Source: a virus
IMG/VR virus record: IMGVR_UViG_3300048914_000085
Direction: 5' to 3' (one strand)
Length of the DNA stretch: 42,110 nucleotides
Within the stretch, counting starts at the first letter, position 1. Each line of letters opens with the position of its first letter. Shown here one piece after another: positions 2,986-40,403 of the stretch. A program made the position numbers and the translations under genes. Below the pieces are notes generated by a model, which worked only from the letters and a program-made list of their open reading frames with translations, ran no database searches and was not told the DNA's origin.

Positions 2986-3031
2986 CCTCCTATCAGCCGG
3001 GACAAACCAACCCCGGCGCTAGGAGGTCCAG

Positions 3032-6377: not shown

Positions 6378-6454
6378 CCGACGCAATGGCCAGCAATCCC
6401 GCTGCTCTATCCCCGTGCCCGGCGGGTTATCCGGGCCCCTATTCTGAGGACCGC

Positions 6455-7148: not shown

Positions 7149-7151
7149 TCT

Positions 7152-11347: not shown

Positions 11348-12042
11348 CCGATGACTATGAGGCGCTGGAAGTGTGGCGGAAGGCGAAAGAGGTTCACTAT
11401 ACCCGCTCGCGTGAGATCGAATGGCATATGAGCGAACAGGGTAAGGGCACTGCTAACCAAGCCGCCGCAGCCATCCTGCGCGATCATGTCGAGGCGAAGC
11501 TGGCCGAGGTGCGGGCGGAGCGGGATGCTGATGCAATCGCCCTAGACGGGTATCGGGCAGCGGCTTGTTTCATCGGCGCTGATAGCTGGGATGGTTGCTC
11601 CGACTGTATGGATATTCTCAAGGCGGCGAAGGCCACCGACATCTTTTACAATCCAACCACAGACGACACGGCTTTGGCCCTTAGGAATCTTCGGTCACGA
11701 TACTACGGCGTGGCCCCGCAAATGGCCTCACAAATAGAGGCAGACCCGTCAGGTGGGTGGAAAACGGCCCTTGCCGACCGCGACCGCACCATTGCCGAGC
11801 AAGCGGCTGAGATCACTCGCCTGATGGACGACGAGCGCGCGTGGGGGCAGGGCTATCGCGCTGGTGAGAACAAGTGGGCCGAAGCGGTTGCCGAGCAAGC
11901 GGCTGAACTGGATCGGCTGCACGCCGTCATGGAGCGGTGCGCCGTGATCGTGGACCGCAACCTGTATCACCAGCGCGAGAAGGTGGACGATGTTCCGCGC
12001 CTTCTCCGCTCTGCCATCCACGGAGGTTCCAATGCCAAGTGA
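11344..12042 (+). CDS. Hypothetical protein (232 aa)
   Basis: Track ORF. The internal motif AEQAAE(I/L) is repeated. Confidence 0.6.
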   Translation: MTDDYEALEVWRKAKEVHYTRSREIEWHMSEQGKGTANQAAAAILRDHVEAKLAEVRAERDADAIALDGYRAAACFIGADSWDGCSDCMDILKAAKATDIFYNPTTDDTALALRNLRSRYYGVAPQMASQIEADPSGGWKTALADRDRTIAEQAAEITRLMDDERAWGQGYRAGENKWAEAVAEQAAELDRLHAVMERCAVIVDRNLYHQREKVDDVPRLLRSAIHGGSNAK

Positions 12043-12550
12043 CCAGACAGCATGGCTGATTGAGCGCGACGATCTGGCAACCGTTGAGAGCGGTGGCCGG
12101 GTTTGCCTGCACTACTACGGCTTCTGGCATGAGCATGGGATGCACTTCTGGACGCCGGACCACATGAAAGCATGGAGGTTCACCAGCAAGGAGTGCGCCG
12201 AGCGTGAGACTAACGGTGACCCGCTCCTGCGCGTTGCTGAACATATGTGGATGGACACCCGCACCCCACCAGCGAGCGAGCCTGTTCCCGAGGTGGCGGA
12301 AGCGTTGAAGGAACTCGACAAACTCGCATTCATCCTGCGCAACGAAAAGCAATTACCGTGGCGGGGCGATGCTGTCATCCAAGCCGCCGCCCTTCTCTCC
12401 GCTCAAGCGGTCATGCTGGAGGAGGCGAGGGGGTGCATTGAAGCGCTGCTAGCATGGGATAAGCGGCGCAACTTTCCGGTGCCATACGAGGTGCGCGATC
12501 CAATCCTCGCCCTACTCGCCAGGATGGAGGCTCAAAGCCATGTCGGATGA
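12032..12550 (+). CDS. Hypothetical protein (172 aa) whose C-terminal module is shared with the 3825..4124 product
   Basis: ATG 12032 follows GGAGG. C-terminal LLAWDKRRNFPVPYEVRDP compares with VLHWDARRGHLIPYSVRDP in the Ead-like protein. Confidence 0.55.
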   Translation: MPSDQTAWLIERDDLATVESGGRVCLHYYGFWHEHGMHFWTPDHMKAWRFTSKECAERETNGDPLLRVAEHMWMDTRTPPASEPVPEVAEALKELDKLAFILRNEKQLPWRGDAVIQAAALLSAQAVMLEEARGCIEALLAWDKRRNFPVPYEVRDPILALLARMEAQSHVG

Positions 12551-13299: not shown

Positions 13300-13373
13300 G
13301 CCGGGTTAGGTCAATGGTAGATCAACCCCTTTGTAACGGGAAGATGCGGGTTCGATTCCTGCACTCGGCACCA
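13300..13373 (+). tRNA. tRNA-like gene, probable anticodon UGU (Thr), with a noncanonical anticodon arm. CCA is encoded.
   Basis: Hand fold: acceptor GCCGGGT/ACTCGGC (one G-U pair), D arm GGTC/GATC, T arm GCGGG-TTCGATT-CCTGC, ACCA end. The anticodon arm ACCCC-TTTGTAA-CGGGA has only 3 central G-C pairs (A-A and C-C mismatches), or equivalently a 9-nt loop. Confidence 0.55.
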
Positions 13374-13380: not shown

Positions 13381-13456
13381 GCCGGTGTAGCCCAAAGGTA
13401 GAGGCAGGAGACTTAAAATCTCTTCAGCGTCGGTTCGACCCCGACCACCGGCACCA
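13381..13456 (+). tRNA. tRNA with anticodon UAA (reads UUA/UUG, Leu) but a short 5-nt variable loop. CCA is encoded.
   Basis: Hand fold, 76 nt: acceptor GCCGGTG/CACCGGC, anticodon arm GGAGA-CTTAAAA-TCTCT, variable loop TCAGC, T arm GTCGG-TTCGACC-CCGAC, A73, CCA. Confidence 0.7.
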
Positions 13457-20697: not shown

Positions 20698-23358
20698 CTA
20701 CTGCTGTGGTGGTACGCGCCGAGCGTCGTTTTCCTGTTGAGTGGAGGCCGCCACGCTGCCTGGTGACTGCGCGAGCGATCCGCGCAGCGCATTGGCAAAG
20801 GCGGCATTGTCGTTCGCCGCAATCGAGGCGATGCCCGACACCCGCGAAAGCCATGCGTTGATGGCGTGCGGGTTGTTGGTGTTTGGCGCGTTGCGCAAGG
20901 CCTTGGTGAAGTCGGGATTAAGCAGCATCCGCGCCGCGCGCTGTTCTCCCCACTTGGCGATCATTTCCCGCCCGACCGCACCTGCCGCCGCTCCGCCGGG
21001 GCCGCCAGCCCCAAACCCGAGAGCCGCCATCAGCATGGTCTTGAGTGAGTTGCCCGCGCGCTCCACCGCCTTGCCCGAGGGGGCCTGCCGCGCCATCGCA
21101 TCGGTCTTGGCGTTCGCGATAAGCTGGAGGTCGCGGAGCGCCGCCTTGCCTTGTGCGCCGACCACCGCGCTCAGGGTGCGGTCGCTGACCTTCTCCATGT
21201 TCTTGGCAAAGACCGCCGGGCTGAACTCGCCGCGCTGGTTGGCCCCCCAGTTCTGGACAAAGGTCGCGGCAAAATCAGCGCGTTCCTCAGGGGAGGCCAT
21301 CGCCATGAACCGGCGCAGCGCCGAGTAGTTGTTGATGGTGGTCGCGTTGAGTGCGCGGGCCGCACTCTCCGGGGTCGCATCTCCCCGCTTGCCGAGAAAC
21401 AGCCCGGTCACCTCGCGTTGCACCCGCTTGTATTGCGACCATTTCGCGTCCGCGCGCTGGAGCGCATCGGCGGCCTGAGGGTTCGTCGCGCGAAGCGAGG
21501 AATGCAGTTCGTTGGCGGCCACGTCGAGAACTTCGGTGAAAGTCCGGTCGGCGCGCGAACGGTCCTGCATGTTGTCCCCGATCCGACCGCCAACGGTCTC
21601 GCGCTGTGCCTGAAGTGAGCGCACCGAGAGCCCGGTTTGCAGCAGATCGGACTTCATGCCTTCCAGCGCCCGCACCTCGGCGTCATAGCCGGTGGGCGAT
21701 GCGGCCTTGAGGTCTGCGATCTTGGCGTCGATGAACGCGGCGGTCTGGGTCGGCGGGGCAGTGAAGCCCGGGGCGGCGCGCTCCACTCGCTTGTAAAGCG
21801 CAGAGGCCGAAGCCTTGACGTTGCCCTGTCCACGCTCTGCAACACCCTGTACGGACTGCCCGAGCGCGGTGTTGTCGGCGCGGTCGTAGGGCCGACCGCC
21901 AGCAATATCGGCCGCGCGCTGCTCAATCGCTGCCGCATCACCTTCCCGAGCAGCCTGAATCATCGGCCCGCCGCCTGCGGTGGACTCGGCCGCTGCATAC
22001 TTGCCGCGCAGTTCGGGGCGCACGTCGGGTTGGCGCATCGGAATGCCTTGTCGCTGCCCCGCCTCGATAACTGCTGTGTCAGCCTGTGCGGGCGCGCCGC
22101 GCCGGAACGGAATGCGGCCAAGGCCATACAGCCCGCCGCCAATCACTCCACCAGCAAGGCCCCCGCCGATTGCGCCGCCTACGCTGCCCGGCGCACCTTC
22201 ACCATATCCGAAGCCGCCGATGCTTCCGATCTTGGCGGCATCACCCACAACTTGCCCGAGCGAGGCAGCACCTTGGGCTGTGCGGACAGCGCCGCCACCC
22301 CCTGCGAGTTCCGCGAGCGTGCCCATAATTGGCCATGCCTGCCGGGATTTGTCCACGAAGGCACGTTCAGCGTCGCGTTCCCGCGTATAGGCGGCGCTCG
22401 GGTCTTGGCCCGTAATAAGCCCGCTCAGATAACCACCCACACCGGCCGCTTCGTCCGCGAGGCCAAGCGTGACGCCCTGCCTTGCCAACGCCCCAAGACC
22501 CGACAGGCTGTTGGGATCGCGCCCGAAAGGGTTTGGGGTCTGAGGGCCGGGGGGAAGGGGGGGAGGCGTCTGCCCACCAGTCGGAGGGCTGGTGTCGGTA
22601 ACGCTTCCCGCGATACCGAGATAGTTGCCCGACTCATCATAGGCTCCGCCATCCTGCACGGTCGCGGGGGCGGGGGTAGCCTTTCCCGTAGGTTCCGCCA
22701 GTGCCTGCATGTACGGCGCAATGGCCGGTTCAACCTGCGCCCACGCTGGACCGGCGTTGGCCTTCGCCGCCTCAATCAGCCGGGTGAGGCGCTGGCTCTT
22801 TAGCTGCTTCTCGGCGTCGGTATCACCATACTGCGGGAAATAGGCCGCCGTCTGCCCGGTCAGCTGCTCCTTGTTGTAGGCCGCGCCGGTGCCGAGAGTA
22901 AGCAGGGCGTCCAGCACATCGACTTGAGAGTCGTAGACCGAGCGGCGATTAGCCCCGGCGATGCCGCGAACCACTGGCGACATGATCCCGCCAGGGGAAA
23001 GCCCATCGGGCCGAATGGCTTCGATCAGCCCGGGCTCTTGCGCTGAGGGGTCAGTCTTGGCGATGCCTTGAATGTCATTGAAGCCCCCGGCAATGCGGGT
23101 CAGCAGGGTGGCCACCTTCTGCTGGGCTTCAGTGGGTTTTCCGCCATCGACTTTCTGCGACCCGTCAGGATTGTGGTTCGCGTTCCACTCGCGCTGCTTC
23201 TGATCAAACTCCGCTTGCGAACGTGCCGCAGCCTCCTCCTGCAACTGCTGGTCACGGATTTGCAGCGGCGTCGGGGCCTTGGGCACACCGGGGATAAAGC
23301 CACGGCGCTGTGGAGACCCGATCTCCTCGAAATCGGCCCACGGATCGGTTTGCGACAT
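20698..23358 (-). CDS. Large internal virion / DNA-ejection protein (886 aa)
   Basis: Its size, Gly-rich hydrophobic tracts (GGAIGGGLAGGVIGGGLYGLG) and position match the P22 gp16/gp20-type ejection genes. Confidence 0.5.
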   Translation of the reverse strand: MSQTDPWADFEEIGSPQRRGFIPGVPKAPTPLQIRDQQLQEEAAARSQAEFDQKQREWNANHNPDGSQKVDGGKPTEAQQKVATLLTRIAGGFNDIQGIAKTDPSAQEPGLIEAIRPDGLSPGGIMSPVVRGIAGANRRSVYDSQVDVLDALLTLGTGAAYNKEQLTGQTAAYFPQYGDTDAEKQLKSQRLTRLIEAAKANAGPAWAQVEPAIAPYMQALAEPTGKATPAPATVQDGGAYDESGNYLGIAGSVTDTSPPTGGQTPPPLPPGPQTPNPFGRDPNSLSGLGALARQGVTLGLADEAAGVGGYLSGLITGQDPSAAYTRERDAERAFVDKSRQAWPIMGTLAELAGGGGAVRTAQGAASLGQVVGDAAKIGSIGGFGYGEGAPGSVGGAIGGGLAGGVIGGGLYGLGRIPFRRGAPAQADTAVIEAGQRQGIPMRQPDVRPELRGKYAAAESTAGGGPMIQAAREGDAAAIEQRAADIAGGRPYDRADNTALGQSVQGVAERGQGNVKASASALYKRVERAAPGFTAPPTQTAAFIDAKIADLKAASPTGYDAEVRALEGMKSDLLQTGLSVRSLQAQRETVGGRIGDNMQDRSRADRTFTEVLDVAANELHSSLRATNPQAADALQRADAKWSQYKRVQREVTGLFLGKRGDATPESAARALNATTINNYSALRRFMAMASPEERADFAATFVQNWGANQRGEFSPAVFAKNMEKVSDRTLSAVVGAQGKAALRDLQLIANAKTDAMARQAPSGKAVERAGNSLKTMLMAALGFGAGGPGGAAAGAVGREMIAKWGEQRAARMLLNPDFTKALRNAPNTNNPHAINAWLSRVSGIASIAANDNAAFANALRGSLAQSPGSVAASTQQENDARRVPPQQ

Positions 23359-23678
23359 CAACGCGGCTCCATGTGAATGTGATCGCCCTCGTTGAGGACA
23401 TCGTAACGGGGGTTCAGTTGCCGCAGGCGGCGGTAGTAGTCGCCCAGGGACATCCCGGCGGGCGGGACACTATCACGCGCCATCGGGTTGCCGGCGGCAT
23501 CGCGGCGCATGTGGTAGGAATTGGACACGCCCCCGACTGCGGCGTTGTGGGACGGGGTGCGGAAGGTTGAGGTAATCGTCTCGCCGGGGATGCCGGCAAA
23601 CCTGACCAGTCCGTTAGGGGCGAAAGCCACCGGCAGCGTTGCCGCTGCCGCCTCCCGGAACGCGCATGATGCGGCCAT
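23358..23678 (-). CDS. Peptidase M15 (VanY / D-Ala-D-Ala carboxypeptidase-like) cell-wall hydrolase, probably virion-associated. Start uncertain.
   Basis: FRTPSHNAAVGGVSNSYHMRRDAAGNPMARD ... NEGDHIHMEP fits the H..D / H.H zinc-peptidase pattern. The N-terminal part of track ORF 23358..23849 overlaps the upstream gene and looks non-genuine. Confidence 0.6.
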   Translation of the reverse strand: MAASCAFREAAAATLPVAFAPNGLVRFAGIPGETITSTFRTPSHNAAVGGVSNSYHMRRDAAGNPMARDSVPPAGMSLGDYYRRLRQLNPRYDVLNEGDHIHMEPR

Positions 23679-24345
23679 CAGGGGTGCGGAACGGAGTTCC
23701 CGGCGGAAGGCGTCTGGCCTCCTCGGGCGACGATACCATCCGGGGACCGGATGAGCCTTGCGGAGCGGGGGCCGCACCGCCTGCAAATGGGTTACCCGCG
23801 CCGGTCGGGTTGCCCATCGCATCAGTCGCGAACGCGCCTTGTTCGCCAATCGGGTGCCATGAGATCTTCTGGCTATCCAGCACCTGACCGATGGTCATCA
23901 TCGTGGTGCCGAGCGCGTCAATCGCCTGGTCGGACGGATCGAACTGGGCCAGCTCCTCCGGGGTCCAGCCATTGGCCATGAGAACCGGCGCAGCCTGCTG
24001 GATGAACGCCTTGCGCTGCTCATAGGGCATGGCCTTCATGCGGACCAGCAGCGGCCCGGCGGCCCCGAACTTCTTCTTCGCCAGTTCCCCGGTCGCATCG
24101 CCCGACTTGGCGAGGAACGCGCGGACCTTCATGTAGGTGTCAGGGTCCGTGCTGGCCACGCCTTGGAGCGCTGCCTGATCGCCTTGGACGGCACGGGGAA
24201 GCAGGTCGCTCAACTGCTGATCACGCTGCTGCTGGCGCTGCATCTGCTGCATCTGCATGTCGCGCATGCGATAGGCCTGCGCGTCGTGCATGATGCCGGC
24301 GAGATCGATGGTTTTGGCTTGCAGCGGGATGGATGCGTCGATCAT
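23614..24345 (-). CDS. Putative internal virion protein (243 aa)
   Basis: Gln-rich N-terminus, within the virion operon, coupled at both ends. Confidence 0.45.
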   Translation of the reverse strand: MIDASIPLQAKTIDLAGIMHDAQAYRMRDMQMQQMQRQQQRDQQLSDLLPRAVQGDQAALQGVASTDPDTYMKVRAFLAKSGDATGELAKKKFGAAGPLLVRMKAMPYEQRKAFIQQAAPVLMANGWTPEELAQFDPSDQAIDALGTTMMTIGQVLDSQKISWHPIGEQGAFATDAMGNPTGAGNPFAGGAAPAPQGSSGPRMVSSPEEARRLPPGTPFRTPDGRIMRVPGGGSGNAAGGFRP

Positions 24346-25010
24346 CAGAAGATTCCCGGATTTGCGGCGAAGGCCGACTGAACGCTCGGGGTGAGGCGGG
24401 CGAGGTTGTTACCCCCGCCAAACAGGCCGCTGTTGAACGCCAGCGAGGTCAGGTTGCCGATCCCGCTGTTGATCGCGTTGGCCTGCCCGACATAGCCCGA
24501 GGCCCGCGCATTGCCGGCCTGCATCGCGGCGTCACCGGCATATTGCGCGGCGTCCCGCCCCAACTGGCCCAGCGTGGCGTTGGTCTGTTGTCCCCCGGCG
24601 GCGACCGAGGCGACCCGGTTGAACTGGTCGGTGAAGTCTGACGTGGCCTGACCCTGCCCGTAGCGCTCCAGTGCCTTCGTCGTGCCGCCGCTCATCAGCA
24701 TGCCGCGCGCTGCCGCGCTGCCTTCCACGGCGCGCTGGCCTTCGTTGAAGCGGAACTGATAGCCGGGCGAGGTGGTGTAATCGTACCCCGGCTTGAGCAT
24801 GTCGGACAGTTGCCCGATCGCCTTGCCGCCCGCCTCACGCCACGGTGCAGTATCGGCGCGGGTCTGCTGGTACTGCTGGTTTTGCAATTCCGCCGCGCGG
24901 TCAGCTGCCGCCGCCTGCGTGTTGGCCGCGCTCTTGGCCGCACTTCCGCCGATCACCGAACTGGCGATCCCGCCGACCGCGGCGATGCCGGCTGCTGCTG
25001 CTAGACCCAT
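24345..25010 (-). CDS. Putative internal virion protein (221 aa)
   Basis: Gly/Ala-rich N-terminal hydrophobic segment and the conserved-looking motif PGYQFRFNEGQRAVEGSAAARGMLMSGGTTKALERYGQ. Confidence 0.45.
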   Translation of the reverse strand: MGLAAAAGIAAVGGIASSVIGGSAAKSAANTQAAAADRAAELQNQQYQQTRADTAPWREAGGKAIGQLSDMLKPGYDYTTSPGYQFRFNEGQRAVEGSAAARGMLMSGGTTKALERYGQGQATSDFTDQFNRVASVAAGGQQTNATLGQLGRDAAQYAGDAAMQAGNARASGYVGQANAINSGIGNLTSLAFNSGLFGGGNNLARLTPSVQSAFAANPGIF

Positions 25011-25011: not shown

Positions 25012-26064
25012 TCAATGCTCCGTCAGTTCGAGGCGGTAGGTTTGCCCGTGTTCAGTCGCGCCCAAACGGCGATACATCGTGCCTAACCGGGGCCCGTCAC
25101 CGCGATTGCCCGATTCCCACACCACTTCGTTGACCCCGCGCGCCTTGAGGCGGGCGAGGGCTTCGCGTTGCAGTTTCATCCCCAGGCCGGGGAACGACGG
25201 GTCGGCGTAGAAGGTGGTGTGCGTGGCCGCCGTGCGTCCCTCGCTCACCAGCGAAGGAGTCACCAGCGTCATCAGGTAACCGAACATCCGCCCATTTGAT
25301 CGGGCGGTGGTGATCTGCATTGCCCCGGCGTCCTCGATCGCCTTGAACAGCGGCCAGTTCTTGGTTTCCCATTCGCGCGGATCTTCGCCGACGACCATGC
25401 AGTGATCCTCGAACAGCTTGCGCCCGTCCCTTCGCCAGGTCTCGCAATCCTCGGTCTGGAAGGTGATCCCGGCGGGCTCCACCGGCCTGCGGGTCGTCAG
25501 TTCGCGCAATTCCGCATGGCGGGCCTGCGCGGTCAGTTTGCCCAACTGCTCGCGGAACGCCACGGCATACCGGACCAGCGCCAGCATATCGCACTGCACG
25601 TTTTCACCCGCGAGACGTTGCCAGTGCGCCCGGTTGAACGGATAGGGCAGGCAATGCTCCCACACCGCCTTGCAGGTTGCTTCCTCGTTCAATGCGTCGA
25701 ACGTGACTTCCAGCGCATTCGTGCGCCTGACCACCTGATCCAGCTTGGCGTCGAGCCGCCGCATGGATGGGCCGGTCAGCGCCGGATCGAACCCGAACGC
25801 CGCAAGGCTTTCCACCACCTCGGCCACCGGCCGGCGCACCACGACAATGCGCGTTTCCGGGGCCATCCGCAGCAGCGTGCGCCAGAACGGCGCGGCGCAG
25901 GTCTCGGAACTCCCGGTATACTCCTGCGACAACCACGACCGCACGTCATCAAGACTGCGCATGTGCCGCAGTTCTTCATGCCCGCACACATGCTCGCGGT
26001 AGGTCAGGAACTTCGCCAGCCATGCCGTGCGGCTGCGGGGCAGCCCCATGACCACGAATGTCAT
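25012..26064 (-). CDS. Two-domain enzyme: N-terminal sulfotransferase-like P-loop domain fused to a C-terminal GNAT acetyltransferase-like domain (350 aa)
   Basis: VVMGLPRSRTAWLAKFL (compare the sulfotransferase 5'-PSB loop PKSGTTWL) and RIVVVRRPVAEVVES (3'-PB-like). C-terminal FYADPSFPGLGMKLQREALARLKARGV resembles GNAT motif A. ATGA overlap upstream and a 1-nt gap downstream. Confidence 0.55.
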   Translation of the reverse strand: MTFVVMGLPRSRTAWLAKFLTYREHVCGHEELRHMRSLDDVRSWLSQEYTGSSETCAAPFWRTLLRMAPETRIVVVRRPVAEVVESLAAFGFDPALTGPSMRRLDAKLDQVVRRTNALEVTFDALNEEATCKAVWEHCLPYPFNRAHWQRLAGENVQCDMLALVRYAVAFREQLGKLTAQARHAELRELTTRRPVEPAGITFQTEDCETWRRDGRKLFEDHCMVVGEDPREWETKNWPLFKAIEDAGAMQITTARSNGRMFGYLMTLVTPSLVSEGRTAATHTTFYADPSFPGLGMKLQREALARLKARGVNEVVWESGNRGDGPRLGTMYRRLGATEHGQTYRLELTEH

Positions 26065-26474
26065 GTCAGCAGGTCAACCGTATCGAGCCGGGTCAGCAGC
26101 GTGGCAAAGGCGGTGGCCAGCGCCTTCAGCCCGTCATCGGTCGCCTGCGCCTCGGCTTGAACATAACTGCCTGAAACGGTCTGCCCGCCGTAAGCCGAAT
26201 AGGACGGTCGCGCTGCCTGGTTCTTGCGCACGAACGGAGCAAGCGCATCATAGGCATCGATCCGCGCGTCGAGCGAATTGACCGCCGTGTTCAGCGCCGA
26301 AATGTCGGTATTGGCCGCATCGATCGCATCGCCCTGGTTGGCAATCGCGGTCTGCGCTGCCTCCAGATCGGCCTGCGTGTCGATGAACGTCGCGATCTTT
26401 TCCAGCACGCGGACAGCGGGTTCGGACAGCCCGAGCTTGTCCTTGAACTCACGGCGCGGGAAATAGTCGGTCAT
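26061..26474 (-). CDS. Coiled-coil protein in the position of the P22 gp26 tail needle/plug (137 aa)
   Basis: Heptad-rich TQADLEAAQTAIANQGDAIDAANTDISALNTAVNSLDARIDAYD. It directly follows the gp10-like gene. Confidence 0.4.
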   Translation of the reverse strand: MTDYFPRREFKDKLGLSEPAVRVLEKIATFIDTQADLEAAQTAIANQGDAIDAANTDISALNTAVNSLDARIDAYDALAPFVRKNQAARPSYSAYGGQTVSGSYVQAEAQATDDGLKALATAFATLLTRLDTVDLLT

Positions 26475-27919
26475 CGCCGCCCCACCTTGTAAACCACCTC
26501 GCCGCCCATCAGCCCGGCGAACACCGGATCGGACACGCTGATTTCCAACACCCAATCCCGCCCCAACCCAAGGTCGAAGAACCGGACCTGCGTGGCGTAT
26601 TCACCGATGGCCCCCAATGGGGCGGTCAGTTCGGAACCGAACGACACCCCGTCACCCGAAACCCGCAGCATCACCAGTGGATCGGTGCCCTGTCCGGTCC
26701 CGTCGAGGCCGACAGCGGTGGCAAAGTCCAGCCACAGTTCCGACAAGACAACCGAGCGCCCGTTCATGCCGAACCGCTGGGTCACGCGGGTGCGGCGGAT
26801 TTCCTGTCCGGCATCGGAATGATAGGCGAGGCTCTGTTCGTAGACCTTGGTCGTCGCATAGTCGGCGACGAGGTGCTTGCCGTAGCACCATGCATGGAAT
26901 TCCGGCCGGTGGCGTTCCTGGTCGCCCGTGTTGCGATTGAGCCACGCCCGTTCGTGCCATTCGCCGGTCTTGAGGTCGTAGGCCCACGACCCTTCATCGG
27001 CGTTCAGGCAGTAGAACGTGCTACCGTCCTCCTGGTAGGTGAACGCGGACAGGTTGGTCGCCGAGCGCGTGAACCGCTCCACCGCCGAGGTCGAAACGCG
27101 GACCAGCGTAAATCCGTTGGAGCGGCGCACGATCCCGCCGCCGTCCTTGTCGTTATCGACCCACCACACCGCATTGTCGGCCCGCAGCGCCGTGTAGGGG
27201 TGGCTGGTGCCCGAGTAGATCACGCCGCCACCGATCCGCTGGAACGGGTTGTCCGCGTCCCCGGAGTCGTACCACACCTCGGCGGAATCAGCGCCGATCA
27301 GCCACAACTGGTCCTCGGTCGGGACCATCGCCTCCACGGTGTCGGGCAGGCTTTCGGCGGTGAAGAAGTTGAGGCCGTCGATGTTGGTCGGGTCGTTCAG
27401 TTCGGAATAGAAGACCTGGCCGTTCTCACCCTGGTAGAGAATGCGCTGATCGAATGACACGCAGAACCGCCCGCGTGGAGCGTCGGCAATTGCCGCGACC
27501 GTCCCCGCAGCGAGATCGAGCGCATAGTACCCGGCCCCGTCACCGATCACGATCACGTCGAGCAGCGAGGCCATGACCACCCGGCCCCGCGCCGAGTTGA
27601 TCTTGCCCCAATTGCGATAAGTGCCGTTGGCATAGATTTCATAGATCCGCCCGGCGGCCACCGCGAACAGGCGATCGTTGTGGACATGCCAGCCCCGGAT
27701 CGGGCCGCGTGGCACGCTGCACAACAGCGAAAGGCCCGGACGACCGCGCAGGGTCCAGCTGTCGCCCTCGCGCTCGGGCTTGATCGGAAACCAGTTGACC
27801 GAGCGTTGCTGGCCGAGCTTGGCCACTTCCCCCTGGCCCGAAGGCCCGACGATCGGGATCGGCGCGCTCTGCCGGTTGGACCGGAGCGCCAGGGCCAGCA
27901 GCGCAGTCTTGGCGAACAT
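26471..27919 (-). CDS. P22 gp10-like packaged-DNA stabilisation / tail hub protein (482 aa)
   Basis: Similar in length to P22 gp10 as I recall it. FTAESLPDTVEAMVPTEDQLWLIGADSAEVWYDSG resembles the gp10 AESQPDGIIGIG...FGSSTIEYF region (compared from memory). Confidence 0.55.
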   Translation of the reverse strand: MFAKTALLALALRSNRQSAPIPIVGPSGQGEVAKLGQQRSVNWFPIKPEREGDSWTLRGRPGLSLLCSVPRGPIRGWHVHNDRLFAVAAGRIYEIYANGTYRNWGKINSARGRVVMASLLDVIVIGDGAGYYALDLAAGTVAAIADAPRGRFCVSFDQRILYQGENGQVFYSELNDPTNIDGLNFFTAESLPDTVEAMVPTEDQLWLIGADSAEVWYDSGDADNPFQRIGGGVIYSGTSHPYTALRADNAVWWVDNDKDGGGIVRRSNGFTLVRVSTSAVERFTRSATNLSAFTYQEDGSTFYCLNADEGSWAYDLKTGEWHERAWLNRNTGDQERHRPEFHAWCYGKHLVADYATTKVYEQSLAYHSDAGQEIRRTRVTQRFGMNGRSVVLSELWLDFATAVGLDGTGQGTDPLVMLRVSGDGVSFGSELTAPLGAIGEYATQVRFFDLGLGRDWVLEISVSDPVFAGLMGGEVVYKVGRR

Positions 27920-29036: not shown

Positions 29037-30173
29037 TTAGCCGATCTCGGCCGAGGTGCCCGAACCGTTCAGGCCGGCGGCATTGGCCGAACCCGTGGTC
29101 GCGAAGAACCCGGTGACCACACCGTGATCCTTGGGGTTGTCGGTGTCGGTCGTGCCTGTGCCGAAGCGGAGCTTGTTGACATTGTAGATGCCATCGACCG
29201 CGACGCCGTACTTGTCGCCGTAGTCGAACTCCTTCGTGCGGGTGCCCCAGCGACGACCCCAGGCAATGCCCAGCGCCTGCGCGCCGCACAGGTACACCGG
29301 GGTGACCTCGGCGGTGCCGCCCGAGCCGATGTTGGCGTAGATCGGCATGTCGTCCACTTCCTTGACGATCGTGCCGTTCCAGTAGATGTCGCCGCCCTCG
29401 AACAGTTTCATCGCCTCGGCCTGGACCACCGTGGATGCCAGGACTTCGGTGTCGATGCTGTCGCGCAGGTTCTTGAACGCATACGGGTTGGCGTAGGCGA
29501 TATAGACGCGCTTGCCGTTGCCGGGGTCGCGCACCGGGCGAATCTTCGGGTTGCAGGTCTTGGCCGCGAGGATCATCGCATCCAGCGCGGTCACGTTGAA
29601 CAGGTCCGCCGTGGTGTCGAGTTGGGCAAGGTCGGCCGAGAGGTCCGAACCACCAGCAGAACCGCCGGCCGAGTAGGCCCCGAACACCGTCCGGTCCTTG
29701 TTGTCCACCAACCACGCGTCACCGATCGCGGCGGTGCGCGCCAGGAACGAAGTCCCGTTGAGCGAGCCGAGCGCGGTGATGATCAGGTCGCGGGTGTCTT
29801 CCTTCGACCAGTCGAGCAGCACCGACTTGGCGGCCTCGCGCAGGTCGATCGCCGAGCGGATTTCTTCCATCTCGGGAATGCGAACCGCGTTGCGGCGCTT
29901 GTTGATGGTGATCGAATGCGACCGCTGGGCCATGTCCTCTTCGTTGCCTTCGAGGACGTTGGAGCCGGTGGTCGCGGCATTGGTCAGCCGGTTGACGAGC
30001 TGGATGTAGATCGTGTCACCCGCGCCCTTGCCCAGCTGGGTCTTGACCTGGATGACCGAGTTTTCCTGCTGCCCCATGACCGAGGCGAAATCAGGGATCT
30101 GGATGTAGGACTTGTAGAAGTCCGCTTCCCACTGCTTGACCTTAAGGGCGGTCGGGACCGTAGTATCGCTCAT
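29037..30173 (-). CDS. Major capsid protein, N4-gp56 / DUF4043-type HK97-fold family (378 aa)
   Basis: KQWEADFYKSYIQIPDFASVMG...GKGAGDTIYIQLVNRL...VLEGNEE pattern. Lies after the scaffold gene. Confidence 0.75.
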   Translation of the reverse strand: MSDTTVPTALKVKQWEADFYKSYIQIPDFASVMGQQENSVIQVKTQLGKGAGDTIYIQLVNRLTNAATTGSNVLEGNEEDMAQRSHSITINKRRNAVRIPEMEEIRSAIDLREAAKSVLLDWSKEDTRDLIITALGSLNGTSFLARTAAIGDAWLVDNKDRTVFGAYSAGGSAGGSDLSADLAQLDTTADLFNVTALDAMILAAKTCNPKIRPVRDPGNGKRVYIAYANPYAFKNLRDSIDTEVLASTVVQAEAMKLFEGGDIYWNGTIVKEVDDMPIYANIGSGGTAEVTPVYLCGAQALGIAWGRRWGTRTKEFDYGDKYGVAVDGIYNVNKLRFGTGTTDTDNPKDHGVVTGFFATTGSANAAGLNGSGTSAEIG

Positions 30174-31077: not shown

Positions 31078-33000
31078 CTAGGCGGCGGCCTTCGGTTCGG
31101 GCTGCATCGCCTGCATGCGGTCGGTCACCGCATTGTACTGGTCGGTCTCGATCTCGGCGGCGCGCAGCATATGCTCGGCCGGGTCCGTCTGACCGGCGTT
31201 TTGCGCCTGCGCGAGGTTCTTGGCGGTCTCGCTCTTGGTCTTTTCGACCTGCGCCTCGGCCCCGGCCATCTGCAACTGCTGCTGCTGCTCGGCCATCGGG
31301 TTGGGCGCGTTGGCCTGGTCCATGATCTCGGCCAGCTTGTCCTTGTCGCGCAGCGCCGAGGCCATGATCAGCATCTTGATCGCTTCGGGCGGCGCGCCCT
31401 GCGGGAACATGCCCGGCAGCATCTTGGTCAGGGTCTCGAACTGCTCGGCCTGAACGGTGGGGGTGTCCATGCCTTCATCGATCACGATGTCCACGTCGAG
31501 TTCGTTGACCGCGTTGCGGGTCTCGACCACCTGGTCGCCGTGCATCTGGACGAACTGGCCCAGGACCATCTGCGCCTGCTGGTCACCCTGCATTGCAGCC
31601 TGAAGCAACTGGGGCCCGACCACCTTCTCGGCGCTCTTCATGCCCTGCGCGTCGCCCTTGGCCACCTCGTCGGCGATCTGCTTGACCGTCACCTGCTGGT
31701 TGAGCCCGACAAAGCGCAGGTTGTTGGGGTCATCGGTGACCCGGAGCCAGCGTTCATCGGTCCACACCTGGCGGATGCGGTTCCAGATCGCGCGGTAGAC
31801 CTCGATCGACAGCGACCGCAGCCGGTCGAACATCCGGGCGACTTCGACCATCCCGCCGTTCTGCTGGGCGAGGATCGCGCGCCCGCTCATGTCGTTCTCG
31901 TTCTTGCCCTGCAACGCGGCATTGGCCCCGAGCAGATCGATCTCGTTCTTGGCCTCCTGCAACAGCTGGAAATTCGCCGCTGCCATGTCATTGGTCGGCA
32001 GGATCTCGAACTCGCCATCCTCGGCGAGGATCACCCCGTCAGGCTTGGCCAGTTCGCGGCGGACCTTCTCGATGTCCTCGGTTACCGCCCGCGAGGCGCG
32101 GACCTGCCGCATGGTGATCAGGTGCAGGCCCTTCGACCGGCGCTTGTTCACCTCGTCCTGCGGGCTGATCAGCACCCGCACCGCGCCATAACGGTCGTTG
32201 TTGCGATCGACGTAGAGACTGACCGCCAGGATCGGGTTTTCCGGCTGTCCGTCCTCATCGAGATAAGGCGAGGGGGCTTCGGGTTCGAGATAGCCGCCAC
32301 GGGTGAACACGCACCGGGTCCACACCCCACCCTTGCGACGGTAGAGTTCGATCACCCGAAACCGCTTGCGGTTGTAATCCGCCCAGGTGTCCTTGGGCTT
32401 GTCCCCGTATGTGCTTTCGTTGCTGTCGCGGGCGATGGTGGCTTCGACCACCTCGGCCGGCCACCCCTTCTCCTCGGCGACATCGGCGTCGTACCACGTC
32501 ACGATGCCCATATAGCGGGCATCGGACCAGTCGGGCCGGGTGCTGGCCGGGTCGCCGAAGAACCGATCCCACGGAATATGGGTCAGGGTCGGGTCATAAC
32601 CCTGCTTGCCCTGCTTGACCCCGACCATGACTGCCGCCGTGCCTTCGATCAGCAGGTTATCCCATGCATCCGAACGCACCCCGTCCCACTGGGCGGCATC
32701 GCAGACGAAGCGGATGGCATCGGTCGCGGCGTCGGCTGCATCCTGGTCCTTGGGGGTGCGCGGAAACGCCTTGGGGTCCTTGCGCTGCTGCTTCTCGAGC
32801 CCGGAGAGGAAGTCGACCTTGCGCTGGATGCGGTTGTAGGTGACCACCGGCTGCTTGCGGGATTCGAGCGCGGCAACCTCGTCGTCCGTCCACTGCTTGC
32901 CGTCGTAATAATCGCGATCCCGCTCGGCGAGCTTGCGCGCGGCGTCGGTGGCTTTCTCCGCCTCCTCGAACAGCCGGATCAGCGCGGAAACGTCACTCAT
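31078..33000 (-). CDS. Portal protein (640 aa)
   Basis: Size, RDRDYYDGKQWTDDE motif near the N-terminus, Gln-rich C-terminus, and position upstream of the scaffold gene. Confidence 0.8.
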   Translation of the reverse strand: MSDVSALIRLFEEAEKATDAARKLAERDRDYYDGKQWTDDEVAALESRKQPVVTYNRIQRKVDFLSGLEKQQRKDPKAFPRTPKDQDAADAATDAIRFVCDAAQWDGVRSDAWDNLLIEGTAAVMVGVKQGKQGYDPTLTHIPWDRFFGDPASTRPDWSDARYMGIVTWYDADVAEEKGWPAEVVEATIARDSNESTYGDKPKDTWADYNRKRFRVIELYRRKGGVWTRCVFTRGGYLEPEAPSPYLDEDGQPENPILAVSLYVDRNNDRYGAVRVLISPQDEVNKRRSKGLHLITMRQVRASRAVTEDIEKVRRELAKPDGVILAEDGEFEILPTNDMAAANFQLLQEAKNEIDLLGANAALQGKNENDMSGRAILAQQNGGMVEVARMFDRLRSLSIEVYRAIWNRIRQVWTDERWLRVTDDPNNLRFVGLNQQVTVKQIADEVAKGDAQGMKSAEKVVGPQLLQAAMQGDQQAQMVLGQFVQMHGDQVVETRNAVNELDVDIVIDEGMDTPTVQAEQFETLTKMLPGMFPQGAPPEAIKMLIMASALRDKDKLAEIMDQANAPNPMAEQQQQLQMAGAEAQVEKTKSETAKNLAQAQNAGQTDPAEHMLRAAEIETDQYNAVTDRMQAMQPEPKAAA

Positions 33001-34862: not shown

Positions 34863-36356
34863 TTAGGCGGCGATGCCGTTGAGGGTGTTGCCGGTCCGCG
34901 ACGAGAAGGTGACGAACGAACCGATGCTGAACCCGGTGGTCATCGCCCCGGTGGTGTTGGTCATCACGTTGTCATTCATCGCGGCGGTGACGTTGAGGCT
35001 CGAACTGGTGCCAAACACCTGGATGCCGACCGCCGTGTTGGGATTGACGATGGTGTTGCGGCTGAAGATCACGTTGCGGACGTAGGCGGCTTCGGCGAAA
35101 ATCAAGCAGCACGGATGCCCGACCCCGGTATTGGTGCGGCAGCCCTCGAAATAGTTGTACATCGCGGTGATGGTGTCGTTCACCGCGCCCGGATAGGAAC
35201 TCGGGGTATCGATCCGGCACCCGGCCACTGCGCTGCGATAGATGCGGTTGCGCAACGCCGTGCCGCTGGTCGTCCCCTCGAACGAGAACCCGCTGGCCCC
35301 GCTGTCCTCGCTCCAGTTGTCAAGGAAATGGATGTTGCTGTTGCCAGCACCCGCACCGATCGAGGCGAAACTGTCATCGCCGCCGCCAAGGGTCTGGTTG
35401 AACTGCGCGATGACATCCGAGCAGCCATCGGTGAAGTGGAAGTTGTCCGAGAAGTTGTGATCGACCGTGTTGTGCGTGATGCGCAGGCCGGTGGAGGCGT
35501 AGAACAGGCAAGCGGCGTTCTCGACGCCCGAGACCTTGACGTTGTTGACCTCCACCCCGGTGCAACTGACGACTTCCAGCCCGCGCCGGTCGTTGCCGGC
35601 GTCGTACCGCGCCGAGCCGGTCGGGCACGACAGCCACAGGTCCGAAACCCGCGCATTGGTGCAACTGGCAAGCCGTAGCGTGGTGGCCGTCTTGTCGGTC
35701 GCGCGCAGTTCGGTGGTCTGGCCGTCCCCGTAGAGGACGAGGCCGGATTTGCCTGAGAACTCCAGCACGCCCGAATGCTTGTAGACGCCCGCCGGGAAAT
35801 AGAGCGCCACATTGGAGCCAATCGAGGCGATGATCGCGGCGAGTTTGCTCTGGTTGTCGGTTGCCCCGGTCTTGTCGAGATTGTTGGCCCCAAAGTCGGT
35901 CGTGACGTTCTTGATCGTCTTGCCGGCGGTGAACCCGCTGTAGGTCCGCACCCCGGTGATGCCGTAGACCGTCACCGTCCCGAGCTGGAATCGGTTGATG
36001 GTCACGCTTTCGCCGAAGGTGATCGTCTCGGCACTCAGGCTGAAGTCCTGCCCTAATGCCCCTTGCATGTGGCAGGTCGTGCCGGTCGCATCATACACCC
36101 GGAAATGACCCGGCGTGCCCGACGCATCAGCCGAGGGGTCGATCCAGTTGCCTTGTGCGTACTTGGTCAACTCCGCCGCTGCGGCCATCCAGTCAGACGG
36201 CAGGGAGACCGTCGACAGGACCGTGCCGGTGTCAGCTGCGGCGCAACTCGCCGGAACCGCGCCGGTCCTCACCTTGAGGACGGCCGAGGCTCCGATTGCC
36301 GCTTCAATGCCATCCAGCGCCGCGTTTTGCGCCGCCACTGAGAATGCGGCGGTCAT
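34863..36356 (-). CDS. Virion-type depolymerase: N-terminal anchor domain plus right-handed beta-helix (497 aa)
   Basis: The ATG lies 1 nt after the TerL stop. Beta-helix motifs HFTDG..AQFN..GGDDSFASIGAG..FLDN..ASGFSFEGTTSG..NPNT are paralogous to 13668..14837. Confidence 0.65.
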   Translation of the reverse strand: MTAAFSVAAQNAALDGIEAAIGASAVLKVRTGAVPASCAAADTGTVLSTVSLPSDWMAAAAELTKYAQGNWIDPSADASGTPGHFRVYDATGTTCHMQGALGQDFSLSAETITFGESVTINRFQLGTVTVYGITGVRTYSGFTAGKTIKNVTTDFGANNLDKTGATDNQSKLAAIIASIGSNVALYFPAGVYKHSGVLEFSGKSGLVLYGDGQTTELRATDKTATTLRLASCTNARVSDLWLSCPTGSARYDAGNDRRGLEVVSCTGVEVNNVKVSGVENAACLFYASTGLRITHNTVDHNFSDNFHFTDGCSDVIAQFNQTLGGGDDSFASIGAGAGNSNIHFLDNWSEDSGASGFSFEGTTSGTALRNRIYRSAVAGCRIDTPSSYPGAVNDTITAMYNYFEGCRTNTGVGHPCCLIFAEAAYVRNVIFSRNTIVNPNTAVGIQVFGTSSSLNVTAAMNDNVMTNTTGAMTTGFSIGSFVTFSSRTGNTLNGIAA

Positions 36357-36357: not shown

Positions 36358-37821
36358 TCAGGCCGTTTTCCATGACCCGCCCTCCGGCTTGTCGAAGATG
36401 TCCCACCCGTCGCGGCGCTTGGTGGTGGGCTGGGTCTTCACAATCGCCGGATGGGCCTGGTCGATCGCCCGCCCGATCAGGCTGGCCGTGTCCACGTCGT
36501 CATCATGCTTGCCAGCGGGGAATACGAGAAATTCACTGAGGTCCGCACCCGGCTCGAACTTGACCCGCCCGGTTGCCGCCATCGCCTGGAACGAGCGGGC
36601 CCGCGTCGGCTTGTCCGAGACAGAAGGCAGCCATTCCAACCGGCAATAGACCCGGCGCTCCTGCATCCGGCGCTTGAGCATCGGCTCGATCGCCTTCTGG
36701 ATCACCCCGCCTTCACCGAACCACGCTAGTGGCTTGTGCTTGGCAATGAGATCCAGTTTGCGCTCGATCCACTGGTCAGAGGCAGTCTGACCGCGCCACC
36801 CGTCCACCCGGTAGATGTTGCCAGCAGCGTCGATGCCCCACACGCGATGAACCGTGAAGTCCCCGCCGCCATCCGTAACAGCGTAGTCGCTGGTCCCGTA
36901 GCAGCGGAGCGCAGGCAACTTGTCCCACTCTCCAAACCATTCACGGCGAAAGAACGTGCCTTCATCGGGCTGCGGCCTTTGCTGGTAGAGCGCCGACCAT
37001 TCACGCGGGCCGATCGTCGCCTTGATCCGTGTCAGCGTCTCGACCGGATACCATTCCGGCCACAGCGCCGCGCCTTGGTCGTCAATCGCGGGAAGCTCCA
37101 ACACATCCCATTCACCTGCGTCCTGCTCCAGCAAGCGGCCGGCCAGATCGTCTTCGTGCCACCGGGTCTGGATTAGCACGATCGCGCCACCCGGCATCAG
37201 CCGCGTGTAGAGCGTCGAACGATACCAGTCCCACACCAGTTCGCGCCGCCGCTCACTGTCGGCCTCTTCGCGGTCCTTGAACGGGTCGTCGATCAGCGCG
37301 ATGTCCGCGCCGCGCCCCGTCACTGCCGTACCCACACCGGCTGCCACATAAGCCCCGCCGTGGTTGGTATTCATCCGGTTTGCTGCCGCGCTGTCAGGTG
37401 ACAGGCCCACACCGGGAAAGACCTGCCCGAACTCCGGCTCCGCCACGATGTTGCGCACGTTACGGCCGAAGTCGCTGGCAAGGTCGCTGTTGTAGCTTGC
37501 CGCAATGATCTGGCGCTTCGGGTTGCGACCCAGGCACCACGCCGGAAACCGCTTGCTCGCCAGTTCCGACTTGCCATGCCTCGGCGGCATGAAGATCATC
37601 AGCCGGTCAATGTCGCCCCGTTCCACCGCTTCCAGCTTGTCCGCGATCTGCGCGTGATGCTGGGCGCGTTGATAGGCCGGGTTGGTAAACTCAGTGAACC
37701 CGAGGAGGCTCGATCGCGCCTGCCTGGCCTGCAACTGCTTGGTCAGCCTCTCCAGTTCCACCAGCGAGGAAAGGAGCAATGGCCGATGCAAGGGATCGGA
37801 TGCGCTCTGCAAGCTCGTCAT
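36358..37821 (-). CDS. terL: Terminase large subunit (487 aa)
   Basis: Walker A PPRHGKS, Walker B IALIDDP, C-terminal nuclease-type DDDVD. Third-position GC supports this frame across the overlap with terS. Confidence 0.85.
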   Translation of the reverse strand: MTSLQSASDPLHRPLLLSSLVELERLTKQLQARQARSSLLGFTEFTNPAYQRAQHHAQIADKLEAVERGDIDRLMIFMPPRHGKSELASKRFPAWCLGRNPKRQIIAASYNSDLASDFGRNVRNIVAEPEFGQVFPGVGLSPDSAAANRMNTNHGGAYVAAGVGTAVTGRGADIALIDDPFKDREEADSERRRELVWDWYRSTLYTRLMPGGAIVLIQTRWHEDDLAGRLLEQDAGEWDVLELPAIDDQGAALWPEWYPVETLTRIKATIGPREWSALYQQRPQPDEGTFFRREWFGEWDKLPALRCYGTSDYAVTDGGGDFTVHRVWGIDAAGNIYRVDGWRGQTASDQWIERKLDLIAKHKPLAWFGEGGVIQKAIEPMLKRRMQERRVYCRLEWLPSVSDKPTRARSFQAMAATGRVKFEPGADLSEFLVFPAGKHDDDVDTASLIGRAIDQAHPAIVKTQPTTKRRDGWDIFDKPEGGSWKTA

Positions 37822-39808: not shown

Positions 39809-40403
39809 TGCCTCGGTTCCATTTCCTGCTGTTCAGTACCCAGGTCTTCCAAGCATCCTGCCAGTCTACGAACCGGCTTCCCTTGGATCGGTGGTGGGCG
39901 GTGAAGTGTTCAACCTGCGTGTCGTACTCGCCGTCAGCCCACGAGGCGGTGATCTCCCCGCACTTGCTGCCGGGTGGCCAGTCATCAGGAACCCAGTCCT
40001 CAGGCATCACGCGCGCGCGCTGTGTTTTTACCTTTGACGGTTCTTGATGGTTCAATGACGGTTTGGGTGCCACTGTGGCGGGGGTGGGGTGACACTGTGG
40101 CGGGGGTGGTGTATCGTCTGTCACCGGTGCCACTGTGGCGGGGGTGACACTGTGGCGGGGGTGGATCACGTAGCGGCACCCCTTGCCGGTGACTTCGATC
40201 CGGGTGAGGTGGCCTTGGTCTTTCAGCGATTGGATCGACCGCTGGACCGACCGCTCACCGATGCACGCCTTGCGCCCGATTGTGGCAATCGAGGGCCAGC
40301 ACTCGCCTTCGTCATTGGCGCAATCGGCCAGCGCGAGAAGCACCAACTTCTCGGTTGACGAAAGGGGAAGTTCCCAAGCGAGCGACATGACCCGAATGCT
40401 CAT
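39624..40403 (-). CDS. Replication initiator with an N-terminal winged-HTH and internal origin iterons (259 aa ORF). The last ~60 codons overlap the next gene.
   Basis: WELPLSSTEKLVLLALADCANDEGECWPSIATIGRKACIGERSVQRSIQSLKDQGHLTRIE is an HTH_36/DnaD-like N-terminal domain. The iterons lie in the linker. Confidence 0.65.
   Translation of the reverse strand: MSIRVMSLAWELPLSSTEKLVLLALADCANDEGECWPSIATIGRKACIGERSVQRSIQSLKDQGHLTRIEVTGKGCRYVIHPRHSVTPATVAPVTDDTPPPPQCHPTPATVAPKPSLNHQEPSKVKTQRARVMPEDWVPDDWPPGSKCGEITASWADGEYDTQVEHFTAHHRSKGSRFVDWQDAWKTWVLNSRKWNRGNGRTELHGTRQSAGPDRRDGVARALDRRLGLGEPAGTSGRRDAGPGEGNRLLTAPATRPVF
40066..40163. repeat. Origin-type iterons: four direct copies of CACTGTGGCGGGGGTG
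   Basis: Copies at 40071-40086, 40093-40108, 40131-40146 and 40148-40163. Copies 1 and 3 are preceded by GGTGC, copies 2 and 4 by GGTGA. A relatively AT-rich stretch lies at 40021-40065. Confidence 0.8.

Follow-up and report, generated by a model that had tools for sequence, protein, structure and literature searches.

What does a gene predicted to encode a two-headed transferase do among the structural genes of a bacteriophage? This question is raised by the IMG/VR virus record IMGVR_UViG_3300048914_000085, a stretch of 42,110 nucleotides (hereafter the window), in which an open reading frame (ORF) of 350 amino acids lies on the minus strand between genes of a P22-like virion module. A first-pass annotation, made from the sequence alone, had described this ORF as a sulfotransferase-like/GNAT fusion locked into the structural operon by translational coupling. 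The coupling could be read directly from the sequence. The ATG of the 350-aa gene (complement of 26062–26064) overlaps the TGA (26061–26063) of an upstream coiled-coil, "needle-like" ORF to form an ATGA, and a single base (25011) separates its TGA (25012–25014) from the ATG (25008–25010) of the gp7-like gene downstream. The three peptides quoted in that annotation were all present in the translation: GLPRSRTAWL as residues 7–16, RIVVVRRPVAEVVES as residues 72–86, and PGLGMKLQREALARLKARGV as residues 292–311.

We concluded that the ORF is a real gene and not a chance reading frame, because at least 1,282 clusters of full-length (approximately 350 aa) homologues at 90% identity were found, the fusion occurred on 466 IMG/VR contigs, and the same genes flanked it in most of 81 loci: a gp10-like hub gene preceded it in 77 and a gp7-like gene followed it in 66, and most of the exceptions were contig ends. 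Across these loci (L007–L086), the enzyme shared 52–79% identity with the window copy, the hub 21–38%, and the gp7-like protein 28–54%. The better conservation of the enzyme than of its structural neighbours fits a constraint from an invariant cofactor. In the NCBI sequence of the uncultured Caudovirales phage UFOVP1366, the gene order, the start/stop overlap, and the 1-nt gap were identical to those in the window. Relatives in reference genomes were found on contigs of metagenome-assembled genomes (MAGs) assigned to Sphingomonas, Nevskia, Acidocella, Beijerinckiaceae, and others, and, with 53% identity, in the isolate Azospirillum rugosum IMMIB AFH-6, where the homologue lies on a contig of 622 kb (NZ_JAGINP010000001.1, region 471995–479044) and presumably sits in a prophage. 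The Sphingomonas, Azospirillum, Nevskia, and Acidocella loci had the same gene order.

The fold of each half was examined by structure prediction with AlphaFold2 (AF2). The model of the whole protein, built from a 48-sequence alignment, had a mean pLDDT of 88.4, and that of residues 1–196 alone had a pLDDT of 94.9 and a pTM of 0.89. Foldseek placed human and tick tyrosylprotein sulfotransferases (TPSTs; 5wrj, 8w5z, and 3ap1) as the best matches of the N-domain model, with E values of 9e-5 to 4e-4 and TM-scores normalised to the query (TMq) of 0.55–0.57. Weaker matches were P-loop kinases, Cpz8, a Schistosoma SULT, CurM ST, and SgdX2. Pfam searches with the window protein stayed below threshold: Sulfotransfer_3 (PF13469) reached 22.2 bits where 27 is the cut-off, the matched segment being R72–S86, and Sulfotransfer_4 had an E value of 0.0034. 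An NCBIfam search yielded no match. In phmmer and profile searches of the PDB sequences, the GNAT matches were marginal and the one other match, to the repeats of a designed helical bundle, was spurious, so that the folds had to be sought by structure. Among the homologues, Sulfotransfer_3 was matched by 34 of 48 (best E 4.3e-8), and a distant relative (L107) scored 49.8 bits, well above the gathering threshold. In addition, phrog_10855, labelled "hydrolase", matched residues 2–163 of the window protein (E 4.7e-17; a further search gave 1e-17). An HMM of the N domain also matched another ORF in the window, 11990–12550, weakly (E 0.0015); this ORF lacks the P-loop and the match was treated as chance.

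Residue conservation was then evaluated in 162 divergent N domains and 70 C domains with identities down to approximately 25%. In the N domain, the loop carrying PRSRT, of the type that binds the 5′-phosphosulfate of 3′-phosphoadenosine 5′-phosphosulfate (PAPS), was nearly invariant (R10 in 148 of 150, S11 in 143, R12 in 142, T/S13 in 149, and W15 in 149). The same was true of a C-x-H-E/D segment (C27 in 138; H29 in 141 and E/D30 in 149 of 152) and of the 3′-phosphate-binding-type motif (R78 in 159 and S86 in 145 of 161), and further near-invariant positions were G51, E/D54, and T55. For comparison, a TPST1 sequence was checked against PDB 5wrj, to which it was identical over 265 residues, and was then aligned to the N-domain hidden Markov model (HMM). 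The TPST1 stretch GVPRSGTTLM...CGEE was collinear with the consensus GlPRSrtaWl...Cghe, although this stretch alone scored −0.4 bits. With hmmsearch, TPST1 FLLMVRDGRASVHS aligned with the segment containing R78...S86: the consensus ivvvRRpveevveS corresponded to fllmvRDgrasvhS, in which the TPST1 motif is R-D-G-R-A-S-V-H-S. The phage domain and TPST1/2 (5wrj, 3ap1) thus share a P-loop-like fold, a PRS-x-T loop, and an R...S motif with the same 8-residue spacing. H29 and E/D30 line up by sequence with the C-G-E-E of TPST, which is its catalytic Glu region. Pairing E31 and R33 with E99 and R101 of TPST was considered and dropped, since neither residue is conserved while H29 and E/D30 are. An NTP-dependent P-loop kinase was also rejected: the domain has no Walker-A GK[ST], and kinases were among the weaker Foldseek matches. 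These results supported a sulfotransferase-type fold with PAPS-type motifs for the modelled N half, as the first-pass annotation had proposed.

The C-terminal half was assigned in the same manner. A Foldseek search of the PDB with the whole model returned hundreds of GNATs with E values of 1e-7 to 1e-6, a probability of 1.0, and TM-scores normalised to the target (TMt) of 0.6–0.74; these included RimI, Naa60, AAC(3)-I enzymes, and toxin acetyltransferases. Phage GNATs were matched by the model in a search of BFVD. The window protein itself scored 14–15.5 bits against Pfam acetyltransferase families with cut-offs of 20.7–22 (for Acetyltransf_6, 14.3 against 22, E 0.047), whereas three relatives exceeded the Acetyltransf_1 cut-off (L099, 25.2 bits; P0295, 28.3; P0247, 23.1). 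phrog_1249, "acetyltransferase", matched residues 237–346 (E 1.8e-4; a further search gave 4.7e-5). Residues P292–V311 aligned with the coenzyme A (CoA)-binding region of Naa30 and of phosphinothricin acetyltransferase. Their F-P-G293-L-G295 fits the Q/R-x-x-G-x-G/A loop of motif A without the leading Q/R, and G293 and G295 were conserved in 60 and 67 of the 70 C domains, respectively. The near-invariant positions of this half were H221, A254, R255, G262, Y263, G293, G295, R333, and G335. The models and conservation supported a GNAT fold with a G-x-G loop for CoA pyrophosphate, so that the acetyl-CoA motif of the first-pass annotation stood as well, and both halves look, from their motifs, as if they keep putative cofactor-binding sites. 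On both sides of the fusion, the window sequence fell below the Pfam thresholds whereas its family and the predicted structure supported the folds.

A P-loop domain fused to a GNAT domain is also present in TmcA, the tRNA-Met cytidine acetyltransferase (2zpa), which was the top Foldseek match of the whole model. Among the 50 PDB matches listed, TmcA gave the sole alignment long enough for both domains (over 400 columns). The TM-score to the phage model was 0.30 with a root-mean-square deviation of 20 Å; the domain types match but their arrangement does not. The P-loop of TmcA is of the ATP-dependent helicase type and contains a Walker A motif; the phage protein has none.

We next considered what the position of the gene implies. 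Hardies et al. (2016) described the internal virion protein (IVP) operon of T7 as A-B-C-D, following tubular tail B (PMC4819975 section 9). IVP-A, gp13 of T7, is "required for morphogenesis, not retained in the virion", and acetyltransferases were matched by T7 IVP-A and by the syntenic gene of VpV262-type phages; in the phiRIO-1 homology group the syntenic gene was described as nonstructural, and IVP-B of P22 is gp7 (PMC4819975 section 9). Bischoff et al. (2019) drew the same link between acetyltransferase and IVP-A for the SIO1-type GNAT (PMC6775973). The gene order is 10-26-14-7 in P22, where genes 26 and 14 overlap, and 12-13-14 in T7. The labels of T7 gp13 and P22 gp14 in sequence records and Pfam are "virion stability factor", "head assembly protein", and "probable scaffold". 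The 350-aa gene lies at the IVP-A position, after hub and needle and immediately upstream of IVP-B/gp7, and no second gp13- or gp14-like ORF was found within the window. When cultured phages were searched by tblastn with the whole protein (E <= 1e-3), the matches were solely stand-alone GNAT genes of two Vibrio phages with 30–34% identity. One of these encodes a 151-aa GNAT of a Zobellviridae phage, which also matches phrog_1249; it follows head-closure, adaptor, and coiled-coil genes and precedes those for a transmembrane protein and a 1,600-aa protein, an equivalent slot. Given the IVP-A literature and the Zobellviridae GNAT in the equivalent position, a GNAT-fold protein is an expected occupant of the IVP-A slot. 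Hence, the suggestion of the first-pass annotation that the gene takes the place of a small assembly gene was not supported, and its view that a transferase is unusual in this context failed for the GNAT half, for which IVP-A acetyltransferases are known, while holding in spirit for the sulfotransferase-like half. The known IVP-A genes (T7 gp13, PF11090; P22 gp14, PF11039; the GNATs of VpV262, SIO1, and Zobellviridae) resemble the phage protein in slot, in a domain of approximately 150 aa, and in acetyltransferase-family fold, but they lack its extra 196-aa sulfotransferase-like domain. Any homology of the GNAT half to gp14 would follow from position and literature only; the window protein matched neither PF11090 nor PF11039 in Pfam.

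The extra domain proved to be a mobile module of this slot. A HMMER scan with residues 1–196 returned 1,509 clusters (50% identity) at E <= 1e-3, 636 of them at E <= 1e-10. The best 150 of the 1,509 clusters were annotated with local HMMs: 63 had the N–GNAT architecture of the window, 55 the N domain alone (some being fragments), 22 a gp13-like domain followed by N, and five a gp13-like domain followed by N and GNAT, with five others. The gp13-like domain is approximately 150 aa long. Its HMM matched a 160-aa ORF of locus L100 (E 6e-39), which passes Pfam Phage_T7_Gp13 (27 bits; cut-off 25), and matched T7 gp13 itself weakly but in register. In one locus (L113), a gene of the gp13-like–N type follows a 1,054-aa gene and precedes genes of 218, 716, and over 1,551 aa, sizes that resemble the T7 order. 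Pairwise comparison of these flanking proteins with T7 gp11–gp15 and with the hub and gp7-like proteins of the window gave nothing significant, and the T7-like layout is one of order and size only.

The N domain occupied the same slot in every podophage-type locus whose context was examined, in various arrangements. N and GNAT were separate, overlapping neighbour genes in L100 and L101. N alone was followed directly by the gp7-like gene in L098, L102, and L104, and by a long ORF unmatched by the gp7-like query in L105 and L110; in L103 it was preceded by a weakly gp14-like ORF. The L098 gene, on a contig of an Alphaproteobacteria MAG, encodes a 218-aa protein (54% identity), and it has an ATGA overlap with the gp7-like gene; it indicates that a phage can lose the GNAT half and still retain the sulfotransferase-like one. 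In L107, N is fused to a different C-terminal domain, GNAT-like by eye, for which Pfam reported Sulfotransfer_3 only. Other enzymes also appeared in the slot. An Asp/Asn-β-hydroxylase gene (PF05118) followed N in L106 and L108, with 44.2 and 37.0 bits, respectively, against a cut-off of 22.6. These two loci are contigs of one Thiohalomonadales MAG, and the ORF after the hydroxylase is gp7-like by position and sequence character only, unmatched by tblastn. On an Acetobacteraceae MAG contig (L099), a cupin-like N domain was fused to the same GNAT (44% identity); the cupin call is an HSHHFDH (H-x-H-type) motif read by eye, in a stretch where Pfam finds nothing. This fusion lies upstream of a gp7-like-looking ORF that tblastn did not match. 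Proteins of approximately 292 aa precede the ejection gene in the Rhodoferax phage P26218 (gp30) and in the Manatee Spring podovirus (MW202557). Their N half is cupin-like by eye, with the collinear SET-domain motifs SPIHGTGIF, GRYTNHSPxPN, and GEEVTIDY; gp30 matched Pfam SET below threshold (E 0.015), so the SET-like call is a lead only. The annotation of gp30 as similar to a tail fibre protein looks wrong.

Stand-alone homologues of the N domain, with 27–31% identity, were found in Pseudomonas, Xanthomonas, Stenotrophomonas, and Variovorax phages. In the two Pseudomonas siphophages inspected, PaMx11 gp74 and PaMx25 gp68 lie among genes for DNA ligase, exonuclease, Nrd, denV, and RusA. Together with proteins of NP1, Ab18, and many other Pseudomonas siphophages they belong to phrog_10855, whose members are of the same domain family as the N half of the window protein and have LPRS(G/A)TTW, C-x-H-D, and (E/H)RD...S motifs; they are stand-alone proteins of approximately 175 aa, outside a virion module, with the canonical PRSGTTW loop. 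Judging from these motifs, they look like minimal sulfotransferases. They are labelled "hydrolase" or "putative nucleotide triphosphate hydrolase", which is probably an error, as they lack a Walker-A GK[ST].

From the observed folds, motif conservation, synteny, modular architectures, and alternative enzymes in the slot, we tentatively propose, at somewhat less than an even chance, that the protein is a late, cytoplasmic enzyme of the IVP-A slot that modifies ejection or other virion proteins during assembly with PAPS and acetyl-CoA. The gene would be the opener of the ejection-protein operon of a P22-like podophage, built as a two-headed transferase. It would be made late in the cytoplasm, its translation being coupled on the upstream side to the genes for the hub and the needle-like protein and on the downstream side to the one for the gp7-like protein. 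The N domain may bind PAPS through the PRSRT loop and the R78...S86 motif, with the H29-E/D30 dyad as the base and a hydroxyl group being sulfonated, and the C domain may bind acetyl-CoA through the G293-x-G295 loop and acetylate an amine. The likeliest substrates would be the phage proteins then being assembled, chiefly the ejection proteins encoded directly downstream. As with T7 gp13 and P22 gp14, the protein would be needed for infectious particles and need not remain in the virion. This proposal is based on the fixed, coupled position, the fusion of N to a gp13-like domain, the side-chain-modifying folds in the slot, the TPST-like best matches, and the reported non-virion morphogenetic role of IVP-A.

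Several points weigh against it. The protein is known here from sequence and models alone, and its cofactors, catalysis, substrate, and phenotype are what we infer. The TPSTs outscore P-loop kinases and the remaining sulfotransferases by little (E 9e-5 against approximately 1e-3; TMq 0.57). The N domain ends at about residue 196, approximately 70–100 residues short of the solved sulfotransferases matched; TPST chains have 273–333 residues, TMt is just 0.36–0.42, and the sulfotransferase fold is thus incomplete. Compared with TPST1/2 (at least 260 aa), it has no equivalents of K158 and S285 and no C-terminal PAPS-binding segment, and Arg12 replaces the Gly of the canonical PRSGTT. TPST is an enzyme of the Golgi/secreted pathway, whereas the phage protein would be cytoplasmic, and proteins in the bacterial cytoplasm are not known as established targets of sulfonation. 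The GNAT domain may not be an IVP-A orthologue: hhalign against P22 gp14 (DUF2824), used alone and as an 18-member family, was not significant (E 0.06–0.09 over 14 columns), and L100 has a gp13-like gene alongside separate N and GNAT genes. Furthermore, stand-alone homologues lie in Pseudomonas siphophages that have no ejection-protein operon. As these siphophage genes sit among those for DNA metabolism, the family extends beyond virion modules and may act on something other than an ejection protein.

The same siphophage genes would suit an injected or early-acting effector directed at the host, packaged with the ejection proteins and entering before the DNA, which would sulfonate or acetylate a host target such as a protein of defence or a small molecule, for instance a signalling nucleotide. 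The siphophage N-domain homologues lie in replication and nucleotide-metabolism regions that we assume to be early or middle, and a capsid-delivered podophage enzyme would act equally early; the location inside the ejection-protein block and the conservation above that of the structural neighbours also fit a conserved host target. We nevertheless consider an effector unlikely. The positional counterpart T7 gp13 is reportedly not retained in virions and the gene of the phiRIO-1 group is described as nonstructural (PMC4819975 section 9), fusions of the N domain with a gp13-like domain are frequent, no packaging signal is known, and the other enzymes of the slot are not known anti-defence folds. 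A target other than protein, such as envelope glycan or lipopolysaccharide (in the manner of lysogenic conversion), a metabolite, or phage DNA, appears highly doubtful to us. Translational coupling ties the gene to a late operon, unlike a moron with expression of its own, it keeps its position across 81 loci whose flanking proteins diverge, and its partner domains are IVP-A-like. No obvious membrane segment was predicted; the fold's own beta-strand and P-loop come first in the protein. It is true that glycans or lipids are the substrates of many bacterial sulfotransferases, that the PDB matches included small-molecule "activating" sulfotransferases (SgdX2, CurM ST, and Cpz8) and aminoglycoside acetyltransferases, that the phage is temperate with an integrase, and that the siphophage homologues have DNA-metabolism neighbours. 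Overall, the comparative data favour modification of virion proteins and argue against that of glycans.

The near-invariance of the motif residues bears most on the idea that no catalysis takes place, and that relic enzyme folds serve as a chaperone or scaffold loading ejection proteins into the procapsid. T7 gp13 and P22 gp14 may have the same non-catalytic role; no enzymatic activity was found reported for either in the sources read. The truncated N domain, the change of the P-loop Gly to Arg, the scores of the window sequence under the Pfam thresholds, and the phages with N alone or GNAT alone are in line with such a role. On the other hand, R10, S11, T13, H29, E/D30, R78, S86, G293, and G295 are near-invariant across the 162 and 70 sequences while the neighbours drift, relatives exceed the Pfam thresholds, and the structural proteins that it would serve are less conserved than the enzyme itself. 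A purely structural role thus seems quite improbable, and we keep to modification of virion proteins during assembly as the preferred interpretation.

The window is the genome of a temperate P22-like phage, as indicated by the P22-like virion module together with an integrase, an Erf-like annealing protein, and an exonuclease in the left arm, and it probably holds most or all of that genome. Its features are listed in Table 1 with those of the homologous loci. For the coiled-coil ORF, the 137-aa start overlapping the hub stop is the most plausible; this ORF had weak coiled-coil Pfam matches alone and no match in the PHROG search. Between the 243-aa and 887-aa genes of the ejection block lies a small ORF with an S-x-H...D...H-x-H pattern and a short match to phrog_894 "endolysin" (E 7.5e-7), the 5′ part of which overlaps the 243-aa ORF. 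By this pattern it looks like a VanY/M15-type peptidase within the ejection module. The terminase and portal genes are separated by a 497-aa ORF, an unusual place for so large a gene in a P22-like module, and its PHROG match was limited to approximately the first 125 residues ("virion structural protein", E 2.7e-23). An adjacent pair of tRNA genes separates the early region from the end of the late operon on the minus strand.

Table 1 Positions of features in the 42,110-nt window and in related loci
Locus	Feature	Position	Strand	Remarks
Window	350-aa ORF, sulfotransferase-like and GNAT domains	25012..26064	minus	ATG start; stop codon included
Window	N-terminal sulfotransferase-like P-loop domain, residues 1–196	25477..26064	minus	
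Window	G7–L16, GLPRSRTAWL	26017..26046	minus	5′-phosphosulfate-binding-type loop
Window	C27-G-H29-E30-E31	25972..25986	minus	candidate catalytic His/acid dyad
Window	R72–S86, RIVVVRRPVAEVVES	25807..25851	minus	3′-phosphate-binding-type motif (R78...S86)
Window	C-terminal GNAT-fold domain, residues 197–350	25015..25476	minus	
Window	P292–V311, PGLGMKLQREALARLKARGV	25132..25191	minus	GNAT motif-A region, beta4-loop-alpha3, G293-x-G295
Window	Coiled-coil ("needle-like") ORF, 137 aa	26061..26474	minus	ATG 26472–26474; ATGA overlap at each end
Window	gp10-like tail hub ("head closure Hc3")	26471–27919	minus	phrog_578, E 2.8e-80
Window	gp7-like ejection protein (IVP-B), 221 aa	24345..25010	minus	phrog_598 "DNA ejection", E 4.8e-41; candidate substrate
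Window	Remaining ejection-protein block	20698..24345	minus	by position and size; PHROG matches weak
Window	243-aa ORF, ejection block	23614–24345	minus	
Window	Small peptidase-like ORF	within 23358–23849, probably only ~23358–23680	minus	
Window	887-aa protein, ejection block	20698–23361	minus	
Window	Major head protein	29037–30173		P22-like virion module, PHROG search
Window	Portal	31078–33000		P22-like virion module, PHROG search
Window	497-aa ORF	34863–36356	minus	
Window	Terminase large subunit (TerL)	36358–37821		P22-like virion module, PHROG search
Window	DNA methyltransferase	40400–41053	minus	near right end
Window	Erf-like annealing protein, RecE-like exonuclease, tyrosine integrase	within 4553–8747	plus	left arm
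Window	tRNA-Thr(TGT)	13300–13373	plus	
Window	tRNA-Leu(TAA)	13381–13456	plus	
L098	N domain alone, 218 aa	2983–3639		
L099	283-aa cupin-like N domain fused to GNAT	263–1114		
L106	Asp/Asn-β-hydroxylase gene	2538–3131		
L108	Asp/Asn-β-hydroxylase gene	3482–4054		
L111	Rhodoferax phage P26218 gp30	6744–7619		
L112	Manatee Spring podovirus, ~292-aa protein	4356–5240		
L115	PaMx11 gp74	3998–4549		
L116	PaMx25 gp68	4010–4531		

A GNAT-type gene in this slot was already known. The new element is the sulfotransferase-like module, which we found described in no paper for this context; the literature on sulfotransferases in phage structural modules yielded only mentions as auxiliary metabolic genes or PAPS reductases. 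A broader view, which we regard as on the unlikely side, is that podophage ejection operons open with an interchangeable protein-modifying cassette (sulfotransferase-like, GNAT, Asp/Asn-β-hydroxylase, or cupin/SET-like) that would modify ejection proteins before packaging, here by sulfonation and acetylation. For siphophages, the results suggest that the phrog_10855 annotation "nucleotide triphosphate hydrolase" should read sulfotransferase-like.

The function of the operon opener of the T7 gp13 and P22 gp14 type is only loosely described in the sources. Across thousands of uncultured podophages and prophages, the slot is occupied by proteins with intact putative cofactor-binding motifs, and different lineages place different enzyme folds there, typically ones acting on protein side chains. 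This turns a vague assembly-factor problem into a testable hypothesis, namely that ejection proteins are post-translationally modified, and Azospirillum rugosum IMMIB AFH-6 offers a cultivable host with a homologue. If the broader cassette view is true, this phage would provide the first case of a protein of a phage particle being sulfonated by an enzyme, and an unrecognised layer of control over genome delivery would come to light.

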